Shown piece by piece: positions 3,941 through 24,076 of a stretch of 64,000 bases of DNA. The position numbers and the translations under genes were made by a program. Within the stretch, counting starts at the first letter, position 1, and each line of letters opens with the position of its first letter. Under the pieces are notes generated by a model. It saw nothing but the letters and a program-made list of their open reading frames with translations. It searched no databases and was not told the origin of the DNA. The stretch is from Deltaproteobacteria bacterium (GTDB lineage Bacteria; Desulfobacterota; Binatia; UBA12015): positions 32,006-96,005 of the forward strand of contig JAYGCM010000057.1 in assembly GCA_046583355.1 (NCBI GenBank), written 5' to 3'.

Positions 3941-4104
3941 TCGACACCGCCCAGCCGCTTACCTTCCCCTATTTCGAATTTGCAACCACCGCCCGGCCTC
4001 GGTACTTTGCGGTGTCTCCTTCAGGCGAAGGATGACTCTGGTGGTGGGGACGCCACACAAGGCCGGCCAAAGGCCTGCTTGACGTCCCAAGTGGGGAGAA
4101 GAGG

Positions 4105-5565
4105 ATGGCAGGGCAACCAGGCTACGAGAGACTCTCAAGGCTCGACGCGGCGTTTCTTTCTTTTGAGACAGCGAATGCGCCGATGCATGTGGCGCTCACG
4201 CTCGTCTTTCAAAAGGGTCCGCTCGGGCGCGCCGGCGGCGGCGTCGATGTCGCCAGGATCCGTCGCCATGTGGGCGCGCGACTCTCGCGCGTACCGCGCT
4301 ACCGCCAGAAGATTCAGAAGGCGCGGCTCACCGGCGATTTCCTCTGGGTCGATGACCAGCATTTCGACCTCGACTACCACGTACGCCACACCTCCTTGCC
4401 GCAGCCGGGCAGCGATATCGAACTCAAAGAGCGCTGCGCGGAAATCCTCGAGCGACCGCTGAACCGGGCGCACCCACTCTGGGAAGCCTGGATCATCGAA
4501 GGTATAAGCGACGGCCGTTTTGCCCTGCTCTGCAAGGTGCACCATTGCATGGTCGACGGCGTCGGCGGCATGGCCCTGCTGCAGGCCCTGCTCTCGGTCG
4601 ACCCGGTGGAGCCCTCCGGCGTAATCGACGGCTGGCAGCCGCGCCCGGCACCCAGCGAAAGCGAATTGCTCGCCAGCGCGGTGAAACGCCGCCAGCGCCT
4701 GATCGCCGGAGCGCGCGACACGCTGATGGCCGCCGCGGCCGACCCGCAGAAGGCCCGCGAGTCCTTTGTAGAAGGCGCCACTGCCTTACTCGAATTCGCC
4801 CGTCGCGGCCTCAAGCTGCCCGAAACCGTCAGCTTCAACCAGCCCATCGGGCCCAACCGGCGCGTCGAGTGGCTTGCGCTCGATCTGGCACAGACCAAAT
4901 CCATCGGCACGCGCCTGGCAGCAACCGTCAACGACGTCGCCTTGGCGACCATCGCCGGCGGTTTCCGCCGTTTCCTCGAAGGGCGCGGGCAACTCGGCGG
5001 CGCCACCAGCCTGCGCACCGTGGTTCCCGTCAACCTGCGCCCCCCCGGCGAAGAGGCCAGCCTCGGCAATCAGGCCTCGTGCTGGATGATCGACCTCCCC
5101 GTTGACCAGATCGACCCACGCGAAACCCTGCGGCGCATCCACGCCCAGACCGTCGTGCATAAGAGCCAGCATTCCGCGCGCGGCGGCGAGCTCCTGACCA
5201 GCGCCGCCGAATGGGCCAATGCCGACATCATGCATACGGTGATCCGCGCACTCAGCTCGGCGCATCCCTACAATCTGATCATCACCAACGTGCCCGGCCC
5301 GCCAACACCGCTCTACCTCGCGGGCGCACCGATGCTGACCGCGCATCCGCACCTACCGCTCTTCGAATCGCAGGGCATCGGGTTGGCGATTTTCCGCTAT
5401 GTAGATCAGCTGCATATCGGGCTCGTGGGCGACCGCGACCAGATGCCCGATATCGGCGAGCTACGCTACGCGATCGACTACAGCTTCAAGGCATTGGTCG
5501 CAGCGGCCGAAGCCGCTGCTCCGGCAAAGAAGCAGGCCATGGCCGCGGGTAGCGGCGGCCACTGA
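4105..5565 (+). CDS. wax ester synthase/acyl-CoA:diacylglycerol acyltransferase (WS/DGAT family)
   Basis: HHxxxDG active-site motif HHCMVDGVGG, a family-typical length of 486 aa, and GGGGAGAAGAGG just upstream of the ATG. Confidence 0.85.
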   Translation: MAGQPGYERLSRLDAAFLSFETANAPMHVALTLVFQKGPLGRAGGGVDVARIRRHVGARLSRVPRYRQKIQKARLTGDFLWVDDQHFDLDYHVRHTSLPQPGSDIELKERCAEILERPLNRAHPLWEAWIIEGISDGRFALLCKVHHCMVDGVGGMALLQALLSVDPVEPSGVIDGWQPRPAPSESELLASAVKRRQRLIAGARDTLMAAAADPQKARESFVEGATALLEFARRGLKLPETVSFNQPIGPNRRVEWLALDLAQTKSIGTRLAATVNDVALATIAGGFRRFLEGRGQLGGATSLRTVVPVNLRPPGEEASLGNQASCWMIDLPVDQIDPRETLRRIHAQTVVHKSQHSARGGELLTSAAEWANADIMHTVIRALSSAHPYNLIITNVPGPPTPLYLAGAPMLTAHPHLPLFESQGIGLAIFRYVDQLHIGLVGDRDQMPDIGELRYAIDYSFKALVAAAEAAAPAKKQAMAAGSGGH

Positions 5566-6642: not shown

Positions 6643-8535
6643 TTGCGGGAGGATTCCCCGTCTGGCATCGATCTTCTTATGTCACCGCGTCCCGTTTGGC
6701 TCCTCAGCATGGACACCGAGCAATTCCATGCCCCCCCTATGACGACCGGCGCGCTGAAGGCTTTCTTCGAGCGCGACGGCCAGACTGCGCCCGAGACCGA
6801 AGTCGAACTGGTGCATTTCCTCGAGCGCGAATACGCCGAGACCTGGCTGCGGGAGACCTGGCCTGAGGAAATCCGCGCGCGTGCACAGGCGGCCGTCCAG
6901 GAAGGACACGCCCCGGTCATCGGCCTGAGTTGCTACACCTGGAACGCCGCGGAGTTCCTCGACATCGCTCGCCGCGTGAAACAGGACGTGCCCGGCGCGT
7001 TGGTGGTCGCCGGCGGACCGCATGTCCAGCGTGCGGCCGATTTCCTCTTCGACGAGGCGATTGATGTCGTCATTCTGGGCGAAGGCGAGATCACCTTCAC
7101 CGAGATGCTTGACCGCCCGCGTGCCGATTGGGGCACCATCGAAGGCATGGCCTGGCTCGAGGACGGCGTGCAGCGTGAGACGCCCACCCGCCCGCGCCGC
7201 GAGCAGTTGGATTTCTTCCCCTCCGCGCTCGACGTGATCGAGCTGCGCGACGACAAGGGCCAGCCCATCTACGGCCAGATCTCGTATGAGACCACCCGCG
7301 GCTGTCCCTACCGCTGCGCCTTTTGCGAATGGGGCACCGGTGCCATCGGCACCAAGATGTACCAATTCTCGCTGGCGCGTATCGAGAGCGACCTGCGCCG
7401 CGCCACCGAAGGAGGCATCAAGGATATCTGGCTGGCCGACTCGAATTTTGGTGCGCTACGCGAAGACGCCGAGAAGACCGAAATCGTCATCCGCCTGCGC
7501 AAGGAAACCGGCCTTCCCCAGACCTTTGCGACCTCGTGGTCGAAGAACCACAACAAGCGCGTGCAGGCCATCGTGCGCCGCCTGCACAAAGAAGGCCTGC
7601 TCTCGCATTACCACCTCGCGCTACAAACCTTGACGCCACTCGCGCTCGAGTTGAGCAATAGAAAAAATATGCGCGACAACGATTTCGAACATGTCGTGCG
7701 TGCGTGCGCCAACGAAGGCATCCCGATTGCCGCCGAGCTGATCTGGGGCCTGCCCGGCGACACCCTGGGCGAGTTCGAAACCAACCTCGACCGCCTGCTG
7801 CGAGTTTTCCCGAATATCAATATTTTCGGCTACACGCTGCTACCGGGCACGGAATTCTTCACGCGTAGGGAAGAGTACAAGCTCCAGACCATTCCGATAG
7901 CCGGCTACGGCAAGGCCAAGGGCGAATACGTCGTGGGCTGTCATACCTTCGATACCGACGAGGGCCAGGAAGGCTACTTCCTGATCTCGTCTTATATCGT
8001 GCTGGCACGCGGCCAGATCCTGCCTCTGACGGCGCAATTCCTCGCACTCGGCCAGCAGGTTCCGGTAGCGCCCCTGCTGCGCGCGACGATGCGTGCCTTG
8101 CTTGCGGAATTCCGCACGGAACTCGGCGAAGAAATCGCCAGCGATCGCATGATGGCCTATGAGCGCCGCTCGGAGATCTACCTGCGCTTGCTGGCGGAGC
8201 CGAAGCGGACCTATGCCGTGATCGCGCGGGTTTTCGGCGAGTGGCTGCGCGAGCATGGCGCCGCCGAACTCGCGCCGCGGGTCGAGCGGATCCTCGCGCT
8301 GGACCGGGCGCTCTGCCCGCGCTCAGGCAAAGCGCATAATGAAAAGCACGAATTCGACTTCGACGCGGCGGCGGCCCTCGCCGTCCTGGAGCGCATGGAG
8401 CACCCGGCCGACGCGCTGATCGATACGGCGCCTCTGGTCGAACTCGAGATCGCCTACCCCGGTGGCGTGGGTGAAGTCCTACATGACCCCGACGGCGGCT
8501 CCTGGGTACGCGGCAAGCTACGGGCCGGCGCATGA
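6643..8535 (+). CDS. B12-binding domain-containing radical SAM protein
   Basis: N-terminal cobalamin-binding region GLSCYTWNAAEFLDIARRV...VVAGGPHV followed by a CxxxCxxC radical SAM motif (CPYRCAFC). The start is ambiguous; the ATG at 6679 (MSPRPVWLL) is in frame and the most plausible. Confidence 0.8.
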   Translation: MREDSPSGIDLLMSPRPVWLLSMDTEQFHAPPMTTGALKAFFERDGQTAPETEVELVHFLEREYAETWLRETWPEEIRARAQAAVQEGHAPVIGLSCYTWNAAEFLDIARRVKQDVPGALVVAGGPHVQRAADFLFDEAIDVVILGEGEITFTEMLDRPRADWGTIEGMAWLEDGVQRETPTRPRREQLDFFPSALDVIELRDDKGQPIYGQISYETTRGCPYRCAFCEWGTGAIGTKMYQFSLARIESDLRRATEGGIKDIWLADSNFGALREDAEKTEIVIRLRKETGLPQTFATSWSKNHNKRVQAIVRRLHKEGLLSHYHLALQTLTPLALELSNRKNMRDNDFEHVVRACANEGIPIAAELIWGLPGDTLGEFETNLDRLLRVFPNINIFGYTLLPGTEFFTRREEYKLQTIPIAGYGKAKGEYVVGCHTFDTDEGQEGYFLISSYIVLARGQILPLTAQFLALGQQVPVAPLLRATMRALLAEFRTELGEEIASDRMMAYERRSEIYLRLLAEPKRTYAVIARVFGEWLREHGAAELAPRVERILALDRALCPRSGKAHNEKHEFDFDAAAALAVLERMEHPADALIDTAPLVELEIAYPGGVGEVLHDPDGGSWVRGKLRAGA

Positions 8536-9230
8536 GCCACGGCGAAGGCCCGTCAGCAACGAGCCTCGACGAGGTCTTCCCCTGGGGGCGTTGCTTCGAG
8601 GAATATTGCGAGATGTTCGCACTCAGCGAGGACGATCTGAACAAGAAGATCCTTGGCTGCGGCGACGGCCCGGCCAGCTTCAACCGCACGCTTACCGAAC
8701 GCGGCGGCAAGATCGTCTCCTTCGACCCGATCTACGAAGTCAGCGAAGAAGACCTGCACGCGCGGATCGACGCGACCTTCACGACCCTCATAGAGCAGGT
8801 CCGCGAGAACAAAGACCGCTTCGTGTGGCGGAACCTCGGCGACGTCGAGAACCTCGGGCGCATCCGCAACCAGGCGATGCATGATTTCCTCGAAGATTTC
8901 GAGCAGGGCAAAGCCGAAGGCCGTTATCTCGCCGAAGAGCTGCCCGAGACGCCCTTTCCCGACAAGAGCTTCGACCTCGCCATCTGCTCGCATTTCCTCT
9001 TCCACTACGGCGAGCATCTCTCCCTGGATTTCCACCGCGCCTCGATCGAAGAGATGTGCCGCGTGGCCAAAGAGGTGCGGATCTTCCCCCTACAAGAACT
9101 CTCCGGAGCCCCCTCGCCACACGTACCCGCGATTCGCGATGAGTTCACGAACCGAGGCTACGAGGTCGAAATCCGCGAAGTCGAATACGAGCTCCACCCC
9201 GGCGGCAACCGCCTATTGACGATCCGCTGA
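8532..9230 (+). CDS. class I SAM-dependent methyltransferase
   Basis: SAM-binding motif I ILGCGDGPASF. The start overlaps the upstream stop (ATGA). Confidence 0.65.
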   Translation: MSHGEGPSATSLDEVFPWGRCFEEYCEMFALSEDDLNKKILGCGDGPASFNRTLTERGGKIVSFDPIYEVSEEDLHARIDATFTTLIEQVRENKDRFVWRNLGDVENLGRIRNQAMHDFLEDFEQGKAEGRYLAEELPETPFPDKSFDLAICSHFLFHYGEHLSLDFHRASIEEMCRVAKEVRIFPLQELSGAPSPHVPAIRDEFTNRGYEVEIREVEYELHPGGNRLLTIR

Positions 9231-12489: not shown

Positions 12490-13316
12490 GTCCCCTCCCG
12501 GAAGCCACCCGGCACGCCCTCCTCGAGTGCGCCAAAGGCGACCGAGCCGCCCGCGCCTCGGTCAGCACGAAAATTATCGAACTCGTCGAGGCGGGTGAGG
12601 CGGCCGCCGTCGATGCGGAACTCGCCACGGCCCTGGTCGCCCTCTTCGAGCAACCCGGCCGCACCCAGCAGCGCCACCTCGCCGACGCCCTCCAGCCCTT
12701 GGCCCGGCAAAATACGGCCGTATACGAGGCCCTGAAAGACGCGCTTGCCGCAAGCAATGATTCGCTGCGCTGGGGTGCTGCCTTCACCCTCGGCCACGCC
12801 TTTGGCCCCTCCCCAGCGATCGCAAGGACCATCCTGCAGGTACTCGGCCAGGAAGACGGCGACAGCCGCTGGGCGGCCGCCGAACTGGCCTGCGGGCTGG
12901 CGCGCCTCTCGGAGGATTTCACAAACGAGTTGCGCGCTGCCACGCGCGCCCAGACCGCGACCCTACGACGCATGGCCCTCTATTGCCTGCGCGATCTGAA
13001 GGTCCCGGATTTATGCGCACTCGCCCGCGAGGGCCTGAACGACCCCACTTCACACGGCCGCATGGCCGCGCTCTCTGCGCTGGTGGCTGCGGCCCCCGAT
13101 GCGATGGCGAACGAGGCCCTGGTTGGGCCCATCGGCCGGTTGATCGAGGACGACCCCGATCCCGGTGTGCGCCGCGCGGCCGCTGCCACCCTCGGGCGCC
13201 TCGGCGCCCCGGCGGCCCGCCGGATTCTCGAGCAAGCCTCTGCTTCCGCCGACCCGAGCCTGGCCCGCGCCGCAGCGGGCGCGCTGCGCAAGCTACCCTC
13301 GCTGCCGCCGCACTGA
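12486..13316 (+). CDS. HEAT/PBS-lyase repeat protein
   Basis: Repeated roughly 30-aa Ala/Leu-rich helical units with recurring RxAAAxALG patterns. The start overlaps the upstream stop (ATGA). Confidence 0.6.
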   Translation: MSPLPEATRHALLECAKGDRAARASVSTKIIELVEAGEAAAVDAELATALVALFEQPGRTQQRHLADALQPLARQNTAVYEALKDALAASNDSLRWGAAFTLGHAFGPSPAIARTILQVLGQEDGDSRWAAAELACGLARLSEDFTNELRAATRAQTATLRRMALYCLRDLKVPDLCALAREGLNDPTSHGRMAALSALVAAAPDAMANEALVGPIGRLIEDDPDPGVRRAAAATLGRLGAPAARRILEQASASADPSLARAAAGALRKLPSLPPH

Positions 13317-13352
13317 CTAGAGGCCCGGCCGAAAAGCAGGCCGGGCCTCTAG
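13317..13352. terminator. perfect 14-bp-stem palindrome (CTAGAGGCCCGGCC, 8-nt loop, GGCCGGGCCTCTAG) directly after the HEAT gene stop; possible terminator or repeat element
   Basis: The inverted repeat is seen directly in the sequence. No T-tract follows it. The arms share sequence with the promoter-like motif reported at 37146. Confidence 0.4.
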
Positions 13353-13389
13353 CGCAACTTGCCTGGGCTCTGGTAACCATGGAGGCATC

Positions 13390-14424
13390 ATGGAAACCAC
13401 GGAGACCTTGCCGACCGCGCCAACCGAGACCAACGCGGGCCGATTCCACGCCATCGCCGACCGGGTACTGGAAGGTACCGCTCCGACACGAGAGGAAGCA
13501 CACGCCATCCTGGGTGCGCCGGAGCCCGAGTTCGAAGAGCTTCTGGCCGCCGCCCTGCGCATCCGTGAGCGCCGTTGGGGCCGCGGCGTGAAGCTCTGCA
13601 TGCTGCAGAACGCACGCTCGGGACTCTGCCCCGAAGATTGCAGCTATTGCTCGCAATCCAAGGTCTCCAGCGCCGAGATCGACACCTACACGCTGCTCGC
13701 GCGCGGCCGGCTCATCGAGGGTGCCAAACAAGCGCAGCTGCGTGGTGCGCGGCGCTATTGCATGGTGACCAGCGGGCGCGGACCCAGCGACCGCGATATT
13801 GACGAATTCTGCGCCACCACCCGCGCGATCAAAAGCGAATACCCTGACCTGGAGATCTGCGTCTCCCTCGGCCTGATGGACGACGCAAAAGCCGTCAAGC
13901 TCAAGGAGTCCGGGGTCGGCTGGATCAACCACAACCTGAATACCAGCGAGCGCCACCACGACGCGATCTGCAGCACACATACCTACGCCGACCGCGTGGC
14001 AACCGTGCAGGCGGCCCAACGCGCGGGGATGAACACCTGCTGCGGCGGCATCATCGGCATGGGCGAGAACGACGAAGATATCGTCCAGCTCGGCTTCGCG
14101 TTGCGCGAGCTCAAGGTGGACTCTCTGCCGGTGAATTTTCTCCACGCCATCGACGGCACGCCGCTGGAAGGTGAGCCGAAGGTCAGCGCGGGACGCGCCT
14201 TGCGCGCACTCTGCCTGATGCGTTTTCTCAACCCCGATGCAGATATTCGCGCGGCCGGTGGCAGCGAACGCGCGCTCGGCGAGGACGAGCATCTGGCACT
14301 CAATGCCGCCAACTCAATTTTTGTTGCCGGCTACCTCACGACCTCCGGGCGCACTGCCGAAGCGGCGCATCGCATGATCGAAGAGCGCGGCTTCCACGTC
14401 GACGGAACGGAACTGGGCCTCTAG
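13390..14424 (+). CDS. bioB: biotin synthase
   Basis: Radical SAM motif CPEDCSYCSQS, the BioB NHNLNTS motif, the auxiliary-cluster Cys residues, and a C-terminal IRAAGGSE. GGAGG lies 5 nt before the ATG. Confidence 0.85.
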   Translation: METTETLPTAPTETNAGRFHAIADRVLEGTAPTREEAHAILGAPEPEFEELLAAALRIRERRWGRGVKLCMLQNARSGLCPEDCSYCSQSKVSSAEIDTYTLLARGRLIEGAKQAQLRGARRYCMVTSGRGPSDRDIDEFCATTRAIKSEYPDLEICVSLGLMDDAKAVKLKESGVGWINHNLNTSERHHDAICSTHTYADRVATVQAAQRAGMNTCCGGIIGMGENDEDIVQLGFALRELKVDSLPVNFLHAIDGTPLEGEPKVSAGRALRALCLMRFLNPDADIRAAGGSERALGEDEHLALNAANSIFVAGYLTTSGRTAEAAHRMIEERGFHVDGTELGL

Positions 14425-14435
14425 AGATCCGACAG

Positions 14436-15373
14436 TCAATCCCGGAGATGCCAGATCCACACCTGGTTGCGGAAACGCCCGCCCTGCAATGAGACCTCCA
14501 GGAAGGCCTCGCCGCGACCACCGAGGCGGGCGCCGACCGGGAAATGCCAATGATCGACGCCGCGCGCCACCACCTGGCCGCCGATCCGCCAGACCAGTGC
14601 GCGGCGGTCGCGGCGCTGCGCACTGCCAAGGTGGACGCGGAAGAAGCGCCCCTGCCCGTCGCCGACGCGAAGCATTGCGTCACGTGGCGAGGCCGCGGCA
14701 ATACCGGCATGCGGGCTCGGCTGGCCGCGTGCGGCGAAATACAGCGGCGCGGGCAGAAGCGGCGCGGGGCTCGGTCCGGGAATGCCGGCAACGGCAAAAA
14801 GAAGCCCCGCCAGCAGCCCCGCCGCAACCGAGGGGAGCAGCTCTGCCGCGACCGGCTTGCCCGGGAGCGGCGTCTCCGGAAGAGCCGAAATCGACCGGCT
14901 CTCCCGTGATCCGCGATAGATCGCTCGCGAGCCGAGCCACGGCGCGCCAGCGAGAGGCCGAACTCGAAGATGCGGGACGGCCCCAAGGGGTCGGCCGAGC
15001 GCATGCGGCTGCCCAGCCCCGAGCCGGATACCAGGTCGGTCGCCAGCACCGTCCCCAGCGTTGCATCCTGCAGGCGCGCGCGAAATCCAGCGACCGCCGG
15101 ATGACGAATGCGCTCCAGAAGCTCCCCCTCCAAGACAAAAGCCGCGCACGCACGGGTATCGTGCCTTTGTGCAGCGCCGAGAAAACGAAGCGCACAGGGC
15201 TCATTGCGAAGCTCATCAACCGCCGACGCGAGCCGTTGCGTCGCACCCGCCTGGAGCAGGCGCACGATGCGGAACCGACCGCCGACTCGCCGACCGACAA
15301 GCTCGTCCTTGCGAGCAGAATATTCGACGCTTGGACATCGACCGAAAACGCCGCAACCTGAGCATTTTCCCAA
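14436..15373 (-). pseudogene. Ser/Thr protein kinase-like gene remnant (degenerate catalytic motifs, internally frameshifted)
   Basis: From about 15370 to 14900, frame A reads GGRFRIVRLLQAGATQR...ALRFL...RIRHPAVAGF...LGTVLATDLVSG...SIADHGRAGRF. This is collinear with the kinase N-lobe through the catalytic loop, but the Gly-loop, the VAIK Lys and the HRD Asp are all replaced, and it then runs into Arg-rich nonsense. A different frame ending at 14436 encodes a Pro-rich linker, a TM helix and an 85-aa tail with good GC3. Confidence 0.4.
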
Positions 15374-15394
15374 CTACCCTGGACGCCGGCAAAT

Positions 15395-16915
15395 ATGGTA
15401 GCGTTGCCCGTCTTCGCAGGGTTGCGGAGCAGCCTTGTCGTGGCACAACTTCTCATTCCCATCCGACCCCATAAAAGGGTCCGCCTGCCGGTGACATTAG
15501 CGACCATCCTGGTGCCGCTGGTGGGCCTTTTCATCATCCTGAACGTGGCTCCCGTGCGCAGTCCGCTGACCGAAGCCGAAGCACCCTTGGCGCTGGCCGC
15601 GCGCTACCCCGACCGTATGCTGCTGGATGCGAGCACCTTGCCGCCCACAACGGCTGCCAGCGTAGCGTTAGCCAGCATCGGGCCGAAGCTGATCGGCACG
15701 AGCGAGTTCCATCTGCGTATTCTGGGCCTGCTTGCTGGACTCGGCGCCCTCGCGCTGATGATCCGGCTCGGCGAGCGACTCTTCTCGACGCGGGTCGGCA
15801 TCGTTGCCGCCTTGTTGCTTGTCGCGACGCCGGCGGGCCGCGCCCTGCTCGGCACGCAGCTCTCGGCCGAGCCTTTCTATCTGATCGCCACCTTCGCCGC
15901 GCTCGGAGCGGCGCGCAGCCTCGCAGTCTCGCGCTCCTCGGGCCTATGGGCCGGTATCGCCATCGGGGTTGCCGTAGCCCTGGCCGGCCCGCGTGCGCTC
16001 TGGCTTGTCGGCGTCGTGGGTTTCTGGCTCTGGCGCCTGCGCGGCCTCAATCTCCGTAGCGCCCTGACCGTATGCTTCGTGGTCGCGCTCTCCGCCGGCA
16101 CTACGGCCCTTCTCAGTGGGGCACTTCTGGTCGTGCTCCGGCCCGGACCTTTGCCGCCCCTGCTGCTGCAACCCTTTGCCGACGGCATCGCCTGGAACCC
16201 CGCACTCTTCCTGCTCGGCTTGCTCTTCTTCGCTCCCGTCGTACCCCTGGCGGTACTCGGCACCCTGCACCGCCCGGCGCTCTGGCGCCTGCGCGGTTCA
16301 CCTCGTTTCCTCGCCATCTGGCTATCCTTTGCTCTTGTCGAATTCATCATCTCCGGTCATGGCGCGAACCTCTATATCGGCCTCAGCTTTGGCGTCGCCG
16401 TCCCTGCGGTCTGGGCAATTGAGAACGCACCGCGGCGCACGGCGATTTTCGCGCTCACGGCCTCAGCCGTGCTCGCCATGGCCTTGATCACCGTGGCTCC
16501 CGAGAACGCCGAGCTCCGCTCGCGCGAGCGCTGGGCGGCACGCGAAACCAGCCGCTTCGTGCGCCGCACGGTACCCGAGGGAGCCACCCTTCTCGCCACC
16601 GACAGGCTGCGCGGCCGGATCGCGTATTACGCACGGCGCACGACGCGTCCGAGCCACGACGGCATGGATAGCGCCGCCGTGCATTGGGAAATCATCCCGC
16701 GCCATATCCTCACCACGGCCGGAGCCGACCTGGCCCTGCCGCGCAACCTCCAGGTCGAAGGAGAAGATGCCCGTATCCTTGCCGAGATCGGCCCCTATGT
16801 ACTGAGCCGCGTTGGGACACCTCCGCCGACTCCTGCGCCGGCCACCGATCCCCAGGCGCGGACTGCCTTGATCGGGAACCGACATTCTGGCAACGCGGTA
16901 GCTGTCTATGAGTGA
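15395..16915 (+). CDS. GT-C type membrane glycosyltransferase (ArnT/PMT family, GT39/GT83-like)
   Basis: Roughly 12-TM polytopic protein of 506 aa with ArnT-like loop organisation. The family call comes from overall architecture only. Confidence 0.5.
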   Translation: MVALPVFAGLRSSLVVAQLLIPIRPHKRVRLPVTLATILVPLVGLFIILNVAPVRSPLTEAEAPLALAARYPDRMLLDASTLPPTTAASVALASIGPKLIGTSEFHLRILGLLAGLGALALMIRLGERLFSTRVGIVAALLLVATPAGRALLGTQLSAEPFYLIATFAALGAARSLAVSRSSGLWAGIAIGVAVALAGPRALWLVGVVGFWLWRLRGLNLRSALTVCFVVALSAGTTALLSGALLVVLRPGPLPPLLLQPFADGIAWNPALFLLGLLFFAPVVPLAVLGTLHRPALWRLRGSPRFLAIWLSFALVEFIISGHGANLYIGLSFGVAVPAVWAIENAPRRTAIFALTASAVLAMALITVAPENAELRSRERWAARETSRFVRRTVPEGATLLATDRLRGRIAYYARRTTRPSHDGMDSAAVHWEIIPRHILTTAGADLALPRNLQVEGEDARILAEIGPYVLSRVGTPPPTPAPATDPQARTALIGNRHSGNAVAVYE

Positions 16916-17471
16916 AATCAGCAGCGAAACTCCGAAGGAAGAAACAACTCCTGAGGAGCCCCAGGTCCGCTGGTGGATCGATACCGGCAAGACCGGCGGA
17001 CGTGGCCGGCGGGGAGCGGCGCCTGAGATTCCGGCCGAACGTGTCCTCGGGGAGTCGATCTTCGCGGTTGGCGCCGGCTTCGACGAAGACCGCGCTCGTA
17101 CCCAGCTGACGGGTTCCAATATGAACCTGATCCGCGAAGCCAACCCGACGCCGGGAGAGTGGGCCTACCTCGCGCCCGTCGAGTCGACTTCGACGCCAGA
17201 ACAAATCGAAAAAACCAAGAAATTCCTTCACCTTCCCCAATGGGCGCTAGGCGTCTTGGTGGATTCCGGCATCTCGATCCGCGCGATCGCCACCGGCGAC
17301 CCACCCGGCGCACAAATCGTCGAACTGCGGCTGGGCAAGGACTCTTCTTTCGATGCCTGGCATGAAGGCGAATGGGTGCGCGAGCAGGTCTTTCGCGACC
17401 GCCACCGTGCACTCCGCGAGGGCTCTGGATTCTTGGAGCGTAATCTCGCTCGGCGCGATCGCCTCGGGTGA
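16908..17471 (+). CDS. hypothetical protein (187 aa)
   Basis: ORF with good GC3. Its start overlaps the upstream stop (ATGAGTGA). I recognise no domain. Confidence 0.5.
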   Translation: MSEISSETPKEETTPEEPQVRWWIDTGKTGGRGRRGAAPEIPAERVLGESIFAVGAGFDEDRARTQLTGSNMNLIREANPTPGEWAYLAPVESTSTPEQIEKTKKFLHLPQWALGVLVDSGISIRAIATGDPPGAQIVELRLGKDSSFDAWHEGEWVREQVFRDRHRALREGSGFLERNLARRDRLG

Positions 17472-17502
17472 TTTCCCGCCGGCCATGGAGTATCCCTGCT
17501 GA

Positions 17503-17850
17503 ATGGGAGACGCGCCGGACAAAGAAGACCTCTACGATGAGGGCCTCGACCTTGCCTTCGACGGCAAATACCACGAGGCGATTGGCAAATACCGCGAGGC
17601 CGTCGCACTCGACGCCACCTACGCCGATGCGATTCTCGGCATCGCGATGGCGCATGCCGAACTCGACGAACTCGACGAGGCAATCGAGGCCGCCAAGCAA
17701 CTCTGCGCGATCGACCCCGACGATATCCTCGCCCATACCAGCCTCTCGACGTTCTATATGCGCAAGGAAATGGTCCCCGAGGCCGAGGCCGAATCGGCCA
17801 AGGCGCGTATGCTCGATTGGAAGCGTCAACTCAAGGAAGGCAACTCATAA
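17503..17850 (+). CDS. tetratricopeptide-repeat protein (115 aa)
   Basis: Two to three TPR-like helical pairs (AIGKYREAVALDATYADAILGIAMAH...). Confidence 0.55.
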   Translation: MGDAPDKEDLYDEGLDLAFDGKYHEAIGKYREAVALDATYADAILGIAMAHAELDELDEAIEAAKQLCAIDPDDILAHTSLSTFYMRKEMVPEAEAESAKARMLDWKRQLKEGNS

Positions 17851-18125
17851 TGAGTGACGGAGAGAGGCCAGATGCCTATTATGTCGGGCGCCTGCTCGGC
17901 AAGCTCAAACTCCTCATCGCCACCGACGACGAAGTTCCGATGGATACCAAACTCGACACCCAGGCGATGATCAAGGAGTTCGCGCGCCACCTCTCCGCCC
18001 CGCTAGACGAGCAGGATGTGCCGACCTTGCAAGCACAGCATAACCACCTGCTTGTCGAGCTTGAGGACTTCCCCAACTGCGAGTCGCTGCTGCTTGCGCT
18101 GCCGAACTTCGCGCCCAACCTCTAG
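17850..18125 (+). CDS. hypothetical protein (91 aa), coupled to the TPR gene by a TAATG overlap
   Basis: An in-frame ATG at 17850 overlaps the TAA of the TPR gene. The sequence is MSDGERPDAYYVGRLLGKLKLL... Confidence 0.45.
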   Translation: MSDGERPDAYYVGRLLGKLKLLIATDDEVPMDTKLDTQAMIKEFARHLSAPLDEQDVPTLQAQHNHLLVELEDFPNCESLLLALPNFAPNL

Positions 18126-18142
18126 ACGCCGCCGATTGCGCC

Positions 18143-19243
18143 ATGACGGCTCGCGAACTCAGCCAGCGCGTGCGCGCTGCCATCGGAGAGACAGCGGCAG
18201 ACCCGCAGGCCCCCTTTGCCTTCGACGCACTCGCCGAGGAGATTTTCGCTTTCCAATTTTCTCATTGCGAAATCTATCGTCGTTTTTGTGAGCGACGAGG
18301 TATCCGGCCGGGAGATACCACGACCTGGAAGGAAATCCCGGCGCTGCCCACCAGCGCCTTCAAGGCGCTGGACCTCGCCTGTGGCGATGCCGAGCAGGTT
18401 TTCCTCACCAGCGGGACGACGCAAGGCGAGGAACGGCGGGGCCGCCACCTGATGCCCGATGTCGCACTCTACCGCGAGTCCGCGGTGGCACATTTCCGCC
18501 GCATGGTGCTGCCCGATGGAGCCCGGCCACGCATCGTCGGCCTTCTCGCCGGGCCGGCCGAGACACCCCAATCCTCGCTTATGCAAATGGTCGAATGGCT
18601 CCGCATTGAACTCGGTGACGACGCCCCCGAATACCTGGTCGATGCCGCGGGTTTCAATGCCGCGGCCGCCACTTCTCGCCTGCGCATACTTGCCGCCGAG
18701 GCGCGTCCTCTGTGCCTGATCGGCGTGCGCACGGTCTTTACCGCGCTGCTGGACCACCTCCGCGCCGCCGGAGAAGAGATCGAGTTTCCGGCCGATACCC
18801 GTATCGTCGAGACCGGCGGACCCAAAGGCGGCCGCACCCTCTCCGACAACGGGCTGCGCCGCTCGGCCTGGGACCTGCTCGGCGTACCCGGATATTATTG
18901 CCTCGGCGAATACGGCATGACCGAGCTCTCTTCCCAATATTACGACGATGTCCTGGAGCGCCGCTTTGCCGGCTCCAACGCAAAACGGCGCAAGCTCGCA
19001 CCGCCGTGGCTGCGCTCGGTGGCCGTCGACCCCGAAACCCTCGCCCCGCTACCCGATGGCGAAAAAGGCCTGCTACGACACGTCGACCTCGCCAACGCGC
19101 TCTCCGTGCTGGCCGTACAAACCGAAGACCTCGGCATCGTCACGGGCCCCTACCTCGAATTACACGGCCGCCAACCGGGGGCCGAGCCACGCGGTTGCGC
19201 GCTGGCCCTGGCGCACCTGCTCGAAGGCGAGACACGCGGTTGA
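18143..19243 (+). CDS. LuxE-family acyl-protein synthetase (fatty acid adenylating/transferring enzyme)
   Basis: VFLTSGTTQGEERRGRHL matches the LuxE FxTSGTTG nucleotide-binding motif, in a 366-aa protein. Confidence 0.75.
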   Translation: MTARELSQRVRAAIGETAADPQAPFAFDALAEEIFAFQFSHCEIYRRFCERRGIRPGDTTTWKEIPALPTSAFKALDLACGDAEQVFLTSGTTQGEERRGRHLMPDVALYRESAVAHFRRMVLPDGARPRIVGLLAGPAETPQSSLMQMVEWLRIELGDDAPEYLVDAAGFNAAAATSRLRILAAEARPLCLIGVRTVFTALLDHLRAAGEEIEFPADTRIVETGGPKGGRTLSDNGLRRSAWDLLGVPGYYCLGEYGMTELSSQYYDDVLERRFAGSNAKRRKLAPPWLRSVAVDPETLAPLPDGEKGLLRHVDLANALSVLAVQTEDLGIVTGPYLELHGRQPGAEPRGCALALAHLLEGETRG

Positions 19244-21669
19244 GCGCCGATGAATTCACGCGCTCGCTTGCCGAACTCATCCAGGCTGGACGTGCGTTAC
19301 GCGAGCAACCCCGCAGCGCCCGCATCCGCCGGCTGGGCACGATCCTCGAGGGCTTGCTCGCACCCCAAAGCGACCTCATAGGCTGGGCAAGCGAAATCGC
19401 CGAAAGCACCGGCTACGCCACCCCAATGGTCGAAGTCTGCCTGCGACGAAGCCTTGCGGCCTGGAACGACCCGGCTCTGACGGAGAATATCGCCACGGCC
19501 GAGAGCGCGCCGGGTGAGCATGCGGCGCCCGACCTCATCGCCGCCATTCTCGCGCAGAATACACCGGGGCTGGCGATCGGACCGATCGTAACCGCGCTGG
19601 CTCTGGGCTCCGCTGTGGTGGTGAAAAGTGCGCGCGGCGAGCCGCATTTCGCCGAGCGTTTCGTCGCGGCAATTCGCGCCAAGGACCCGATTCTCGGAGC
19701 GGCCTGTGCAGCGTGGGTCTGGCAGGGCGGCGACCCGGATTTCGAAAACCCGCTGGCCGAGGCCGCCGACCGCATCCTCGTCTACGGCGACAGGGCGACG
19801 ATCGCCTCCTGGCGCGAGCGCGCCGGCGAGCGCGTCGTCGCACACGGGCCGCGCATCAGTCTCGCCTTGGTCGGGGACGGACTCGATGCCGCGGGCCTCA
19901 CAGCATTGGCCGAGGATATCGCCTTTCTCGACGGACGCGGCTGCCTCTCGCCGCAGGCGATCCTGACAACACCGGAGGTCGACGCCACGCGGCTCGGCGC
20001 CGGACTCGCCCGCGAATTGGAACTCATTGCCCGACAATGGCCGCGGCGCCGCTTGGCAGGCAGCGCGGCCGCAGGCTTCCGCCAGGCTGTCGCCAGCGCC
20101 GAGATGGCGCTGGCCGCCGGCGCTGCCGGGGCTCTCTTCGGCGGGCACGCGGCGGGCTTCGCGATCGAAGTCCGCGCCGAGGCCCGAACCCCGGCGCGGG
20201 AATCCGCCTCGGCCCTGGAGCCGTCTCCGTTGGATCGCTTCATCCGTATCTATCCGCTGGCGGGTGCCGAAGCCCTGGCCGCCGCGCTCCGGCCACTGCG
20301 CGAGAATCTCGAATGCATCGGCGTAGGCGGTGCGATCGGCGCGCCCTTCGAGGCGACGCTGCGCCGCGCCGGCGTGCCACGAATCTGCCAAATCGGTTCG
20401 ATGCAAGACCCGCCGGCCGCCTGGCAGCCGGCCGGCCCCTTCCTGCACACGCGCCACGATGAGCGGCCCGGCGCGCCCGGCGACCTGCCCGAGCGCTTCC
20501 GCCGCGTCGTCGCACAGACCTCGGAGGCACCGCGCGCGCTTGAGGTCGTCCGTGCGCGCGGCGCCCATATCTTCACCAGCGACGGCCAGGCCCACCTCGA
20601 CCTGCTGGCAGGAATCGGCGTCGCATCGGTCGGCCACGCGCACCCGCGGGTCGCCGCAGCCGTCGCGCGCCAGGCCCGCCTCTATACCCACGTGATGGTC
20701 TACGGCGAAGACGCGCTGGCACCGCAGGTCGAACTGGCCGAGCGCCTCACGGCACGCCTGCCCGCGCATCTCGAAGCCGTCTACTTCACCAATAGCGGCA
20801 CCGAAGCGATCGAAGGTGCGCTCAAGCTGGTGCGCAAGGCCACCGGACGCACGCGAGTGCTCTCCTTTGAAGGTGCCTTCCACGGCGACACCACCGGCTC
20901 GGTCGCGCTTGGCGGCAACCCGCTCTACCGCGAGCCCTTCCGCCCGCTGATCGAAGGCATCGAGCAGATCCCCTGGAATGATGTCGACGCGCTGGCGCGC
21001 ATCGACGAGACCACCGCTGCCGTCTTTGCCGAACCCGTGCAGGCTGAGGCCGGCGTGCGCCTTCCTGCGGCGGATTTCCTGCCGCGCCTACGCGCGCGCT
21101 GCACCGAGGTCGGCGCCCTGCTGGTCTTCGATGAGGTCGTGACCGCCTTCGGCCGTACCGGCCGCTTCTGGGGTTTCGAGCATTGGCCCGAGGCGGCCCC
21201 CGACGTATTGGTGCTGGCAAAATCTCTCGGCGGCGGGCTGCCGCTGGGAGCCTTTATCGCCTCCCACCAACTACTCGCATCCCTCTCAAGCGATCCGCCG
21301 CTGGGCCATGTGACAACCTTCGGCGGCAACCCGGTCTGCTGCGCCGCAGCACTTGCCGCCTTGGACGTTCTTGAAGAAGAAGCATTGGTCGAGCGCAGCG
21401 CGCGTGTCGGTGCCCTCTTCCTTGAAGAGCTGCGCGCGCTGGTCGGCCACGGCGGCCTGGTAGAGGTCCGCGGCCTCGGCATGCTGCTTGGGCTGGAGTT
21501 CGCAACGCCACAGGCGTGCCTGGCGTTTGCCGAAGCCTGCCGCGCCCGCCACCTGCTGCTCGGCTGGACCCTGCACGAAGACCGCGTGATCCGGCTCGCG
21601 CCGCCTCTGATCCTCAGCGACCCCGAACGCAGACACGCCGTGACCGAAATCCGCGCCGCCCTCGCCTGA
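19240..21669 (+). CDS. fusion protein: LuxC-family acyl-CoA/acyl-protein reductase (N-terminal) and class-III PLP aminotransferase (C-terminal)
   Basis: The N-terminal half carries LuxC signatures ILAQNTPGLAIGPIVTALALG, VAHGPRISLALV and FLDGRGCLSPQAIL (active-site Cys). The C-terminal half carries aminotransferase-III signatures including LVFDEVVTAFGRTGRFWGFEHW and LAKSLGGGLPLGA (PLP Lys). There is no stop codon between the two halves. The probable start is a TTG at 19240 overlapping the luxE-like TGA. Confidence 0.75.
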   Translation: MSADEFTRSLAELIQAGRALREQPRSARIRRLGTILEGLLAPQSDLIGWASEIAESTGYATPMVEVCLRRSLAAWNDPALTENIATAESAPGEHAAPDLIAAILAQNTPGLAIGPIVTALALGSAVVVKSARGEPHFAERFVAAIRAKDPILGAACAAWVWQGGDPDFENPLAEAADRILVYGDRATIASWRERAGERVVAHGPRISLALVGDGLDAAGLTALAEDIAFLDGRGCLSPQAILTTPEVDATRLGAGLARELELIARQWPRRRLAGSAAAGFRQAVASAEMALAAGAAGALFGGHAAGFAIEVRAEARTPARESASALEPSPLDRFIRIYPLAGAEALAAALRPLRENLECIGVGGAIGAPFEATLRRAGVPRICQIGSMQDPPAAWQPAGPFLHTRHDERPGAPGDLPERFRRVVAQTSEAPRALEVVRARGAHIFTSDGQAHLDLLAGIGVASVGHAHPRVAAAVARQARLYTHVMVYGEDALAPQVELAERLTARLPAHLEAVYFTNSGTEAIEGALKLVRKATGRTRVLSFEGAFHGDTTGSVALGGNPLYREPFRPLIEGIEQIPWNDVDALARIDETTAAVFAEPVQAEAGVRLPAADFLPRLRARCTEVGALLVFDEVVTAFGRTGRFWGFEHWPEAAPDVLVLAKSLGGGLPLGAFIASHQLLASLSSDPPLGHVTTFGGNPVCCAAALAALDVLEEEALVERSARVGALFLEELRALVGHGGLVEVRGLGMLLGLEFATPQACLAFAEACRARHLLLGWTLHEDRVIRLAPPLILSDPERRHAVTEIRAALA

Positions 21670-21843
21670 GCCCGGTGGGGACGGAGCCCAGTCCTGTGGG
21701 GACGTGTGTTACCTATACTCCTCAGCTGCTGGTGCAGGAGTTGTTGGCCGCGCCGTCGTCGAGTTCGTCGCAGATCAGCTCGAGCCCCATGGTACCGTTC
21801 AGAGTACGGCAGGCCCGGATCGGCGGCGGATTCGCACCCAGCC

Positions 21844-22948
<1,105 letters not shown>

Positions 22949-23026
22949 GCGCGCTTGGATAACGAAGCCCGACGCGGGACGCATCCCGGCCATGCACTTT
23001 CGCCGCGAAACCGTAAGAATACCCCG

Positions 23027-24076
23027 ATGCCAACCAGAACCGAGCGTCGAGGTGCCGTGGGCATCCTCGTCAATCCCTCTTCCGGGCGTGACGTACGACG
23101 CCTGGCGGCGCGCGCCCGCCAGCAGACGATCGAAGCCAAGCGCAATCAGGTGGCGCGCATCGCCGTCGGGATTGCGGCCGCTGGCGCCCGCACGGCCGTC
23201 GTGATGCAGGACCCGATGCGGGCTGCCACCGCTGCGCTCGAGCATATCGGCATCGATATCGAGGTTGAGATTCTCGACGTCGGCGCCAGCCTCAAGGCCG
23301 CCGATACCGCTGCCGCCACCGAGAAGATGCGCGCCTTCGGCTGTGGCGCGATCGTGGTGCTCGGTGGCGACGGCACCAACCGGGTGGTCGCCGGCGCCTG
23401 GCCGGACGCACCTCTGGTCCCTCTCTCGACCGGCACCAATAATGTCTTCCCGGTCCTCGCAGAAGCGACCATGGCAGGTGCCGCCGCAGGCCTGATCGCA
23501 GCCGGCCGGCTACCCCTCGATTCTGTCTCGACACAGGCCAAGATCGTGCATATCGAGAGTGCTGCCGGCGAGACCATCGCGCTGATCGACGCCGTGCGCC
23601 TGGAGGGCGACCACAAGGGCAACCTCATGCCCTTCGACCCGCCGATGCTCCGCGATATCATCCTGACCCGCGCCGAACCCGCGGCCATCGGCATGTCGCC
23701 GATTGGCGGCCTGCTCCTACCATGTTCCCTCGACGACGATTTCGGCGTGCATGTGCGCTGCACCGACCACGCAGGCGGCGGCCGGCCGCTGCTCGCGCCG
23801 ATCTCACCGGGACTCTACGGGACGGTTCATATCGCCGATGTGCGACGCGTCGAGCTCGGCGAGCGAATCGCCATCTCGGGGCCCGGCGTGCTTGCCTTTG
23901 ACGGCGACCGCGAGCTTGTCCTGCGCGCCGGCGAACAGGCCTTCGCCACCATTCGGCGTGACGGCCCGCGCGTCATCGACGTCGGGCGGGCCTTGCACGA
24001 AGCCGCGCGGCTGGGCCTCTACGTTGACCGCGGCCCGTTTCACGATTCGCACGGCGACGCCCCGGGCTGCTGCTGA
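23027..24076 (+). CDS. ATP-NAD kinase / diacylglycerol-kinase-like catalytic domain protein
   Basis: GGDG motif IVVLGGDGTNRVVAG. The ORF's upstream extension from 22850 overlaps prfB, so I take the in-frame ATG at 23027 (MPTRTERRG). Confidence 0.55.
   Translation: MPTRTERRGAVGILVNPSSGRDVRRLAARARQQTIEAKRNQVARIAVGIAAAGARTAVVMQDPMRAATAALEHIGIDIEVEILDVGASLKAADTAAATEKMRAFGCGAIVVLGGDGTNRVVAGAWPDAPLVPLSTGTNNVFPVLAEATMAGAAAGLIAAGRLPLDSVSTQAKIVHIESAAGETIALIDAVRLEGDHKGNLMPFDPPMLRDIILTRAEPAAIGMSPIGGLLLPCSLDDDFGVHVRCTDHAGGGRPLLAPISPGLYGTVHIADVRRVELGERIAISGPGVLAFDGDRELVLRAGEQAFATIRRDGPRVIDVGRALHEAARLGLYVDRGPFHDSHGDAPGCC

Follow-up and report, generated by a model that had tools for sequence, protein, structure and literature searches.

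The DNA analysed here is a window of 64,000 nucleotides from an uncultured Binatia bacterium, in which the gene for a LuxE-type acid-activating enzyme adjoins a gene that encodes a LuxC-type reductase and a PLP-dependent aminotransferase (AT) as a single protein. The first gene encodes a LuxE-like acyl-protein synthetase of 366 aa (18143 to 19243, + strand) that matches PF04443 in a Pfam profile search (E 2.2e-14; 53.6 bits, cut-off 24.9). Its TGA stop codon (19241 to 19243) overlaps the TTG start codon of the second gene at 19240, reading gcggTTGAgc, and this 4-nt overlap also occurs in relatives. The second gene (19240 to 21669, + strand) is an 809-codon frame without interruption and has its stop codon at 21667 to 21669.

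The fusion protein begins with a LuxC-type acyl-thioester reductase domain of the ALDH superfamily (aa 1 to ~397; 19240 to 20430), delimited with PF05893 and an alignment to 7XC6 and predicted by AF2 with pLDDT mostly 85-96. An interdomain linker (~aa 398-430; 20431 to 20529), recognised from the alignment conservation profile and a pLDDT of 67-77, leads to a class-III PLP aminotransferase domain (aa 431-809; 20530 to 21669) assigned from PF00202, PDB alignments and Foldseek. Profile searches placed both halves far above threshold: residues 94-390 match LuxC (PF05893; E 6.5e-33, 114.6 bits, cut-off 21), with the match ending at 382 of 401 profile positions, and residues 431-808 match Aminotran_3 (PF00202; E 1.2e-90). 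The active-site cysteine in GRGCLSPQ is Cys235 (codon 19942-19944) and the Schiff-base lysine in LAKSLGGG is Lys661 (codon 21220-21222); both motifs are invariant across 40 aligned homologues. The gene pair, its TTGA overlap, the single frame, the two domain families and both catalytic residues had been proposed in an initial annotation of the locus, and all were borne out.

A database entry identical to the 809-aa protein exists at NCBI (P0001), and 53 full-length database proteins combine LuxC and Aminotran_3 domains (51-87% identity). A survey of genomes for LuxE and LuxC-AT neighbourhoods, as the initial annotation had suggested, found LuxE followed by LuxC::AT in one frame with no stop in 18 independent GTDB species loci, separate LuxE, LuxC and AT genes in 24 loci, and the order AT-LuxE-LuxC in 33 loci from uncultured Myxococcota. 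The three activities adjoin in 75 loci and three gene arrangements, and all homologues come from uncultured MAGs. Unfused LuxC and AT genes are separated by gaps of only 14-145 nt, so that one lost stop codon or indel could mimic a fusion of two ordinary genes; this reading as an assembly or sequencing artefact is refuted for practical purposes, because the 18 loci and 53 proteins keep one frame across different samples and assemblers, a neighbour-joining tree dominated by unfused loci groups the fused proteins in a single clade, and the linker differs in length and sequence among family members (805-916 aa) yet both domains remain in frame. The fusion is real and of single origin, and it is a derived variant of a more widespread and previously undescribed module of three genes, LuxE-LuxC-AT.

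Upstream of luxE on the same strand, an integral membrane protein of 506 aa (15395 to 16915, + strand) has about ten hydrophobic segments and a weak match to PMT_2 (ArnT/PMT-like GT-C; PF13231, E 8.7e-6, 26.5 bits, cut-off 26.1); its gene is found upstream in 16 of the 18 fused loci. It is followed by a conserved hypothetical protein of 187 aa (16908 to 17471, + strand), in which ~60 disordered N-terminal residues precede an alpha+beta domain. The start of this gene overlaps the stop of the membrane protein gene by 8 nt (ATGAGTGA), which was missed earlier and which makes the co-directional, tightly packed block one of six genes, the membrane protein gene probably being the first. Next come a TPR protein of 115 aa (17503 to 17850, + strand; TPR_11 E 1.9e-10, TPR_19 E 6.5e-10) and a conserved hypothetical protein of 91 aa (17850 to 18125, + strand) that starts in a TAATG overlap with the TPR gene; the initial description of the TPR gene, its two small hypothetical companions and this coupling was confirmed in the sequence. 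The 91-aa protein has no match in a Pfam profile search and is conserved in six aligned loci, its C-terminal F-x-P-x-L included. By tblastn its gene is present in 16 of the 18 fused loci and in 7 unfused loci, and was not found in the Myxococcota loci. In Binatia loci, whether fused or unfused, the TPR and 91-aa genes stay together beside luxE, facing either way. The membrane protein, the TPR protein and the two small proteins are conserved neighbours of the module. The WS/DGAT (4105-5565) and PlsC-like acyltransferase (2921-3940) genes previously connected with unusual lipid chemistry are indeed in the window, but they lie more than 11 kb away and outside the conserved block, and their link to the module is conjectural. 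Across the loci compared, the module has no conserved companion gene for a thioesterase (LuxD), an ACP or lipid metabolism; its surroundings are housekeeping genes, bioB, prfB, GroEL and ribA among them.

The LuxE-like protein is a truncated ANL adenylating enzyme that lacks the ANL C-terminal subdomain. It matches the LuxE of 7XC6 with E 1.6e-17 (phmmer) and scores 76 bits against the NCBIfam LuxE equivalog, far below the cut-off of 550. Its tail, GRQPGAEPRGCALAL, carries a putative acyl-carrying cysteine, Cys352 (codon 19196-19198), with Arg343 at -9. The tail motif GRxxGAxxRGC[AS]L is invariant in all ~80 loci read and agrees with the published LuxE motif TRxxKGCxLS, in which Cys364 is preceded by Arg355 at -9 (PMC9157457).

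In the LuxC domain, Cys235 and Asn107 (codon 19558-19560) align with the catalytic cysteine and oxyanion Asn162 of Photobacterium phosphoreum LuxC (7XC6), although direct comparison by phmmer is weak (E 1e-3). All of the 40 fusion proteins compared have Cys235, and Asn107 is nearly invariant in them. The LuxC cleft residues S166, T169, P264, Y291 and F297 (PMC9157457) correspond by alignment to L111, G114, P204, L230 and L236, so that the positions beside Cys235 are apolar throughout.

In the aminotransferase domain, column counts and PDB alignments (1VEF, 8HT2, 7NN1, 4UOX) show that Lys661, the PLP-binding Asp631, Glu603 and Arg785 are invariant; in OAT and PatA the equivalent Glu/Arg pair forms the 2-oxoglutarate/glutamate site (PMC4244111). 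Asp550 (codon 20887-20889) sits where ArgD, OAT and GabT have an arginine that binds the substrate carboxylate and where putrescine aminotransferase has a lysine. This replacement speaks against a substrate of the ornithine or lysine type. All 17 fused proteins compared have Asp at position 550, as do 20 of 22 unfused ones; the 30 Myxococcota proteins all have Leu. The Myxococcota enzymes also have a rearranged Glu/Arg pair, and the groups may therefore differ in substrate or donor. Asp550 is also no obvious choice for a fatty-aldehyde pocket.

Taken with the adjacency of the activities in 75 loci, the LuxE cysteine motif and the LuxC Cys and Asn fit the previously proposed sequence of LuxE, LuxC and transaminase chemistry. 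Judged from sequence, LuxE and the fusion protein probably constitute a self-contained system for turning a carboxylic acid into a primary amine with no carrier protein. The LuxE-like enzyme would adenylate a free carboxylic acid with ATP and shift the acyl group from acyl-AMP onto its own Cys352, whose flexible tail would then swing to hand it to Cys235 of the LuxC domain. NAD(P)H would reduce the resulting acyl-S-LuxC thioester to an aldehyde, which the fused aminotransferase in its PMP form would convert to a primary amine. We infer that flux runs in this direction; the amino donor is probably glutamate, bound via the Glu603/Arg785 pair, and the reactive aldehyde may be channelled without leaving the protein. 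Neither acyl carrier protein nor CoA would be required. The initial annotation had named a route from fatty acid to fatty amine: its acid-to-amine logic stands, whereas a long-chain fatty acid is a plausible but unproven substrate. If the chemistry is right, conversion of a hydrophobic (fatty) acid to an alkylamine is the leading guess, with roughly even chances, favoured by the apolar cleft positions beside Cys235.

The same chemistry might instead act on a positively charged omega-amino or guanidino acid, yielding a diamine through an amino-aldehyde (GABA to putrescine or 5-aminovalerate to cadaverine, for example), which would represent an unrecognised polyamine route. Asp550 in place of the Arg of AcOAT, OAT and GabT or the Lys of putrescine aminotransferase would suit such a substrate. 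So would the invariant Glu490 and Asp491 of the fused family, in a loop aligned with Gln119 of PatA, a residue in contact with putrescine's distal amine. Among solved structures PatA is one of the nearest to this half (E 1.5e-69), and the module, set among housekeeping genes, looks vertically inherited, as would be expected for a core metabolite. However, the cleft beside Cys235 is apolar, Asp491 is not kept in unfused relatives, the Myxococcota module has Leu at residue 550, and the alignment of loop 484-493 to PatA is uncertain by one or two residues. We know of no LuxE or LuxC relative that acts on amino acids, which also counts against this reading, and we consider it unlikely.

In amine catabolism an aldehyde dehydrogenase commonly acts after a class-III aminotransferase, and the N-terminal half does belong to the ALDH superfamily. 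The fusion could accordingly run in reverse, from amine to aldehyde to acid as PatA and PatD do with putrescine, with LuxE unrelated or serving another purpose. This is very improbable. By its scores the domain belongs to LuxC. Of the ALDH catalytic set this reductive branch has retained the Cys alone, and it is without the general-base Glu on which thioester hydrolysis depends; the LuxC stretch KFGPKKS is AHGPRIS in the fusion, again without Glu. Moreover, an ATP-consuming LuxE with an acyl-carrying Cys, translationally coupled and co-occurring in every arrangement, would be senseless for oxidation.

More doubtful still is a pathway like ArgB/ArgC/ArgD or LysZ/LysY/LysJ, in which LuxE and LuxC would replace kinase and reductase on N-acyl-glutamate or carrier-bound aminoadipate and the aminotransferase half would be an acetylornithine/LysJ transaminase. 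The best NCBIfam and PDB matches are such enzymes (NF002874, 352 bits; 1VEF, E 3e-80, 41% identity, Foldseek TM 0.89), and the 91-aa protein superficially recalls the carrier LysW. We disfavour this pathway because every ArgD and LysJ model scores below its cut-off (352 against 457, 300 against 700), the substrate-carboxylate Arg (PMC4244111) is replaced as described above, and the 91-aa protein ends in F-x-P-x-L, with no acidic C-terminus, and is missing from Myxococcota loci. 1VEF is nonetheless the closest solved relative of this half: the Lys, PLP Asp and 2-oxoglutarate Glu/Arg pair are kept, whereas the Gln of DEVQTG is Val634 and the domain is joined to a reductase.

Returning to the acid-to-amine system, its activating and reducing steps resemble LuxC-LuxE of P. 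phosphoreum (7XC6): genes of both families adjoin, LuxE is without the ANL C-terminal subdomain and has a C-terminal xGCxL Cys preceded at -9 by an Arg, LuxC has the catalytic Cys and oxyanion Asn, and CoA or ACP is not needed. The relationship is distant, as the scores above indicate, and luxD, luxAB and luxG do not accompany the Binatia genes. The LuxC domain is ~400 aa and leads into the linker and aminotransferase where P. phosphoreum LuxC has a C-terminal oligomerisation element, and the predicted fate of the aldehyde is amination, not use by luciferase.

Three systems resemble the reductase-transaminase design. PigE, from the prodigiosin MAP pathway of Serratia, is a natural fusion in which, as in the Binatia protein, a thioester reductase precedes a class-III aminotransferase (PMC8341465; PDB 4PPM), with a homologous aminotransferase half (E 1.5e-55) and a proposed thioester-aldehyde-amine logic with channelling. 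Its reductase is akin to cyanobacterial acyl-ACP reductase/GluTR and neither to LuxC nor to the ALDH superfamily; the LuxC half had no match to full-length 4PPM at E<=1, and the NCBIfam PigE model reached 271 against a cut-off of 850, on the aminotransferase half only. The substrate of PigE, moreover, is a CoA or ACP thioester supplied by PigD, and the pigE gene lies in a pigment gene cluster. TamA and TamH (tambjamine YP1, Pseudoalteromonas tunicata) form a demonstrated two-protein cascade from fatty acid to fatty amine, in which ATP-dependent activation precedes the action of a reductase-transaminase fusion, with glutamate as donor (PMC9594044). TamH, however, has the reversed order, with an N-terminal transaminase and a C-terminal AAR-like reductase, and TamA is an adenylation-ACP didomain; acyl-ACP is obligatory, and the system belongs to a secondary-metabolite gene cluster. 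TabE and TabA (tambjamine BE-18591, Streptomyces albus), compared by description only, make dodecylamine with an ALDH-superfamily thioester reductase and a class-III omega-transaminase, and a sequence similarity network places TabE in a cluster with LuxC (bioRxiv 10.1101/2025.08.11.669332). These are discrete proteins whose substrate is held on an ACP (TabQ), without LuxE, and TabE is NADH-specific and keeps the Glu general base. Given these precedents, the novelty first claimed for the fusion was overstated and is narrower: its design resembles known enzymes but is built from different parts, and what is new is the LuxC-type reductase in the fusion, the LuxE partner that takes the place of an ACP, and the triad's lineage-wide occurrence.

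The LuxC::AT fusion gene closes a block of six co-directional, tightly packed genes on the plus strand (window 15395-21669). The first encodes a 506-aa multi-pass membrane protein with a borderline match to PMT_2 (GT-C, ArnT-like; 15395-16915), and its stop overlaps the next start by 8 nt. The gene for a 187-aa hypothetical protein follows (16908-17471) and, after a 31-nt gap, that for a 115-aa TPR protein (17503-17850), which is joined by a TAATG overlap to the gene for a 91-aa hypothetical protein (17850-18125). Beyond a 17-nt gap lies the gene for the 366-aa LuxE-like protein (18143-19243), whose last 4 nt, TGA stop included, it shares with one uninterrupted 809-codon ORF that starts at a TTG (19240-21669). 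The initial annotation had described this coupling and the upstream TPR and small hypothetical genes with their TAATG overlap, and we confirmed both in the sequence; the motifs quoted there are also present in the 809-aa protein, with Cys235 in GRGCLSPQ and Lys661 in LAKSLGGG. Counts in a promoter and terminator scan of window 14300-22000 were at background level, and an Rfam search of window 13000-23500 returned nothing above the gathering score and no riboswitch or RNA clue.

Pfam searches placed both halves of the fusion in the families proposed for them. The N-terminal half matched LuxC (PF05893) over residues 94-390 with 114.6 bits against a cut-off of 21 (E 6.5e-33), and the C-terminal half matched PF00202 over residues 431-808 (304.5 bits, E 1.2e-90). 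In a HMMER alignment to LuxC of the Photobacterium phosphoreum LuxC-LuxE structure (7XC6_A), GRGCLSPQ lies under QQACFSTQ and AQNTP under AGNVP, with the catalytic cysteine (Cys296) and the oxyanion asparagine (Asn162) in register; among 40 fusion proteins Cys235 is invariant and Asn107 nearly invariant. Hydrophobic-cleft positions near the cysteine, numbered as in the LuxCE paper (PMC9157457), are S166, T169, P264, Y291 and F297 in LuxC and L111, G114, P204, L230 and L236 in the fusion, the latter all apolar. The LuxC family has lost the general-base Glu of ALDHs and is reductive, not hydrolytic (PMC12041015); in our alignment of the fusion with LuxC, the segment under KFGPKKS reads AHGPRIS and contains no Glu. 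In P. phosphoreum LuxC a C-terminal oligomerization element (P460-P488) closes the L-shaped cleft, whereas in the fusion the PF05893 match stops at profile position 382 of 401 (residue 390), a variable linker follows, and no alignment reached that element.

The LuxE-like protein scored 53.6 bits with PF04443 (gathering score 24.9, E 2.2e-14; profile positions 45-388 of 391 aligned), and phmmer matched it to the LuxE chain 7XC6_E (E 1.6e-17). Because it failed the NCBIfam LuxE equivalog NF052244, with 76.4 bits against a cut-off of 550, it is a distant family member and not a lux-operon orthologue. Its 366 residues do not include the C-terminal subdomain of ordinary (ANL) adenylating enzymes. 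Cryo-EM of LuxCE places the acylated Cys364 of LuxE in the tail motif 358-TRxxKGCxLS-367, with the catalytic Arg355 nine residues before it (PMC9157457). The tail of the LuxE-like protein, GRQPGAEPRGCALAL, carries Cys352 with Arg343 exactly at -9, and RGC[AS]L occurs without exception in the loci read, across all three gene arrangements of the module.

In the aminotransferase half, alignment to 1VEF, 8HT2, 7NN1 and 4UOX pairs Lys661 with the lysine of LAKALGGG and Asp631 with the aspartate of DE(V/I); Lys661 and Asp631 are both invariant. The closest relatives are acetylornithine/LysJ aminotransferases (1VEF, E 3e-80, 41% identity, Foldseek TM 0.89), together with putrescine aminotransferase (PatA). 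A Foldseek search of the whole fusion model against the PDB gave a list filled by aminotransferase matches, which speaks for this half and not for the N-terminal domain. The Glu603/Arg785 pair is kept; in OAT and PatA the same pair handles 2-oxoglutarate and glutamate (PMC4244111). At the position of the carboxylate-binding Arg, occupied by Arg in three AcOAT structures and by Lys in PatA, the fusion has Asp550 (FHGDT); the equivalent Arg180 of OAT salt-bridges the substrate carboxylate (PMC4244111). NCBIfam models for ArgD, LysJ, PatA, BioA and PigE all scored below their own cut-offs. An ArgD/LysJ identity is disfavored by the scores of NF002874 (352.5 against 457), TIGR00707 (325.7 against 410) and NF042418 (300.4 against 700), and by the replacement of the substrate-carboxylate Arg by Asp550. 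A link to biotin synthesis, considered since bioB is nearby and BioA is a class-III aminotransferase, was rejected: the BioA model scored 230 against a cut-off of 405, and the KAPA-to-DAPA step needs no reductase.

An identical 809-aa protein is present at NCBI from a 'Deltaproteobacteria' MAG, and 53 full-length proteins with both Pfam domains (51-87% identity) come from Binatia, 'Deltaproteobacteria' and 'Thermodesulfobacteriota' MAGs of several metagenome sources. Using the aligned LuxC halves as query, we scanned a single genome for each GTDB species and obtained 80 loci, and 85 loci were examined altogether; in 18 of the 85, LuxC and aminotransferase (AT) lie in one frame with no stop between the halves. 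Linkers (about residues 398-430) differ between members in both length and sequence, and total protein size runs from 805 to 916 aa, while both domains stay conserved. A phmmer search of 1.84 billion cluster representatives found 1497 relatives of the LuxC half, almost all of them stand-alone proteins of 380-470 aa; among the matches listed, only one other representative was fusion-sized (852 aa). Because 53 proteins and 18 loci keep the frame and the relatives are almost all stand-alone, the fusion is a genuine single gene, as first proposed, but is confined to one narrow clade. Binatia-type fused loci L012, L014 and L017 come from GTDB representative MAGs whose records are titled 'Klebsiella pneumoniae', 'Alphaproteobacteria' or 'Enterobacteriaceae'; since locus content and synteny are Binatia-like, the titles seem to reflect mis-binning or mislabeling.

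The survey for LuxE plus LuxC-AT neighborhoods, a check suggested in the initial annotation, recovered unfused triads in addition to the 18 loci in which LuxE is followed by LuxC::AT. LuxE, LuxC and AT occur in that order as separate genes at 24 loci, mostly Binatia with some labeled Myxococcales and others, and with gaps of 14-145 nt in most; the order AT, LuxE, LuxC is found at 33 loci from uncultured Polyangiales, Sandaracinaceae and 'Myxococcales'. Six of the remaining 10 of the 85 loci end at or just past the LuxC match. LuxE adjoins LuxC in nearly all loci complete on that side, and at least 75 species-level genomes, from two poorly known lineages, carry the triad. No other genomic evidence speaks as strongly for joint action of the three enzymes as this adjacency under different gene orders. 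In a neighbor-joining tree of LuxC cores, the fused proteins form a single clade inside the branch of unfused LuxE-LuxC-AT loci, and the Myxococcota AT-LuxE-LuxC loci make up the second branch. This is most simply explained if a stop codon was lost once, fusing two genes of an older three-gene module.

All 17 fused proteins compared have Asp at residue 550, as do 20 of 22 unfused ones, and all 30 Myxococcota proteins have Leu. In the Myxococcota loci (L036-L084; for example L055, 5873-11059) the Glu/Arg pair of the AT is rearranged, with Glu603 replaced by Arg and Arg785 by Gln, and a proline-rich SseB-like protein of ~480 aa precedes the AT-LuxE-LuxC operon. The amino donor or the substrate of the Myxococcota module may differ from that of the Binatia module. 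With a Myxococcota LuxC as query, every protein recovered came from a MAG and bore the name 'acyl-CoA reductase' or 'hypothetical'; the homologues of the fusion are likewise all MAG proteins.

The TPR and 91-aa pair adjoins luxE in fused and unfused Binatia loci, in either orientation. The fused form comes with the PMT_2-like membrane protein and with the 187-aa protein, which is found with some unfused forms too (L025, L049). Neither the 187-aa nor the 91-aa protein has a Pfam match; the fold predicted for the 187-aa protein is an alpha+beta domain, for which no structural neighbor was informative. Because they recur beside luxE or with the fused form, these four upstream genes are plausible members of the unit, and the proposal that the TPR and small genes belong to it stands at that strength.

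The domain identities, the conserved residues for each step and the co-occurrence of three activities provide the basis for a mechanism. The LuxE-like enzyme would adenylate a free acid and form a thioester on its own tail at Cys352; the tail, we infer, would then bring the acyl group to Cys235 of the fusion. NAD(P)H would release the aldehyde at the LuxC domain, and the fused PLP domain would aminate it, presumably after channeling, with glutamate as the probable donor. Flux would run from acid to amine, and at the level of chemistry this idea is well supported.

Two alternatives bear on the substrate and the direction. The main rival to a fatty acid is a cationic substrate, with an omega-amino acid converted to a diamine; Asp550 would suit it, as would Glu490-Asp491, a pair invariant in the fused family. 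Asp550 also disfavors an ornithine- or lysine-type substrate. A hydrophobic (fatty) acid is favored, although unproven, because of the apolar LuxC cleft positions, because residue 550 is Leu in the Myxococcota module, and because of precedents of the TamH, PigE and TabE type. An oxidative, catabolic direction is unlikely, because the N-terminal half belongs to the reductive LuxC branch without the ALDH general base, a family property (PMC12041015), and because the ATP-consuming LuxE is translationally coupled to the fusion.

As in PigE and TamH, a reductase and a class-III aminotransferase are joined in a single chain. The two domains are ordered as in PigE (PMC8341465) and are swapped in TamH, which works with the A-ACP protein TamA to turn a C12 acid into dodecylamine in vitro (PMC9594044). 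The reductase domains of both are of the acyl-ACP-reductase/GluTR type (PMC8341465, PMC9594044), whereas the N-terminal half of the fusion is PF05893, of the ALDH superfamily. The LuxC half had no match at E<=1 to full-length PigE (4PPM_A), the AT half matched its residues 422-744, and the NCBIfam PigE model scored 271 against a cut-off of 850, on the AT half only. PigE and TamH also use a substrate held on ACP or as a CoA thioester and lie in a pigment gene cluster, unlike the fusion locus; no ACP, PKS, NRPS or pyrrole genes were found in the window or in any locus surveyed. In a 2025 preprint (bioRxiv 10.1101/2025.08.11.669332), a discrete ALDH-like protein, TabE, which clusters with LuxC, and the transaminase TabA convert acyl-ACP to dodecylamine. 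Our literature search for a LuxC-aminotransferase fusion or a LuxE-LuxC-aminotransferase module found only these analogues, PigE, TamH and TabE/TabA. The claim that the fusion was undescribed holds for LuxC-AT but not for reductase-transaminase fusions in general, so that its novelty is real but narrower than the initial annotation held. The fusion arrives convergently at the PigE/TamH architecture with an unrelated (ALDH-type, LuxC-like) reductase, and LuxE's own cysteine tail would replace the carrier protein. If the chemistry holds, two proteins would turn a free acid into a primary amine with ATP, NAD(P)H and an amino donor only, with no phosphopantetheinylated carrier and no CoA. The design would then be attractive for biocatalysis because TamA/TamH and engineered CAR-plus-transaminase routes are more complex.

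We clustered all predicted proteins of the 85 loci and ran Pfam on the conserved neighbors, which comprise bioB, release-factor genes (RF1/RF2, among them prfB), GroEL, ribA, a metallophosphoesterase, an SseB-like protein and a lipid A acyltransferase. These are housekeeping or uninformative genes, and gene context was set aside as a guide to the substrate; among the conserved neighbors no LuxD, ACP, PKS or lipid-synthesis gene travels with the module. The shared release-factor neighbor was likewise discounted, being RF2 in Binatia and RF1 in Myxococcota, and convergent to the fusion gene in the window and the Binatia loci inspected. In the window, the stretch upstream of the listed prfB ORF (21844-22863, minus strand), at 22860-22900, holds the classic programmed +1 frameshift site of RF2 genes, CTT TGA C, preceded by a Shine-Dalgarno-like GGGAGG; because of this site, the listed 339-aa RF2 ORF is the post-frameshift part only. 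In several fused loci an SDR and an AMP-binding acyl-CoA synthetase lie between bioB and the membrane-protein gene, and in some related genomes the block itself includes genes for a 176-aa HExxH protein and a 106-aa coiled-coil protein. Near the cluster in the window none of the four was detectable; the ORFs there in the ~1 kb from bioB to the membrane-protein gene (14424-15395) are all Arg/Pro-rich, as is typical of noise in high-GC DNA, and none is a credible gene.

The presence of the triad among housekeeping genes in at least 75 genomes points to an overlooked amine metabolite, lipid or polyamine, not yet sought in Binatia or uncultured Myxococcota. A bolder reading, which we regard as rather unlikely, is that the triad, whose most integrated form is the fusion, is an unrecognized pathway that Binatia and uncultured Myxococcota of sea and soil inherit vertically, and that makes a primary amine for core physiology and not a secondary metabolite. 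Were this so, the product could be an alkylamine that goes into an envelope lipid, with the GT-C-like membrane protein of the same transcript and the small partners processing it; alternatively the acidic Asp550 pocket could serve to turn an omega-amino acid into a diamine. In either case the pathway would be the first natural acid-to-amine route needing neither CoA nor a carrier protein.

The WS/DGAT and PlsC genes that the initial annotation had taken as a sign of unusual lipid chemistry are both present, but lie more than 11 kb away and outside the conserved block. They belong to a neutral-lipid gene trio (window 2026-5565). Its first gene (2026-2952), for an NAD-dependent epimerase/reductase that weakly matches the 'male sterility' family NAD_binding_4, is overlapped by the PlsC-type acyltransferase gene (2921-3940), and WS/DGAT follows (4105-5565); the trio is possibly a wax ester or TAG unit, separate from the fusion module. 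Elsewhere in the window, positions 6643-9230 hold two genes that share 4 nt, one for a 630-aa B12-binding radical SAM enzyme and one for a 232-aa SAM methyltransferase-like protein, and the same radical SAM gene lies ~8 kb upstream of luxE on the contig of L001, one of the surveyed loci. On the minus strand, positions 48303-52634 encode one 1443-aa protein with GT2, GT4 and GT1 glycosyltransferase domains.
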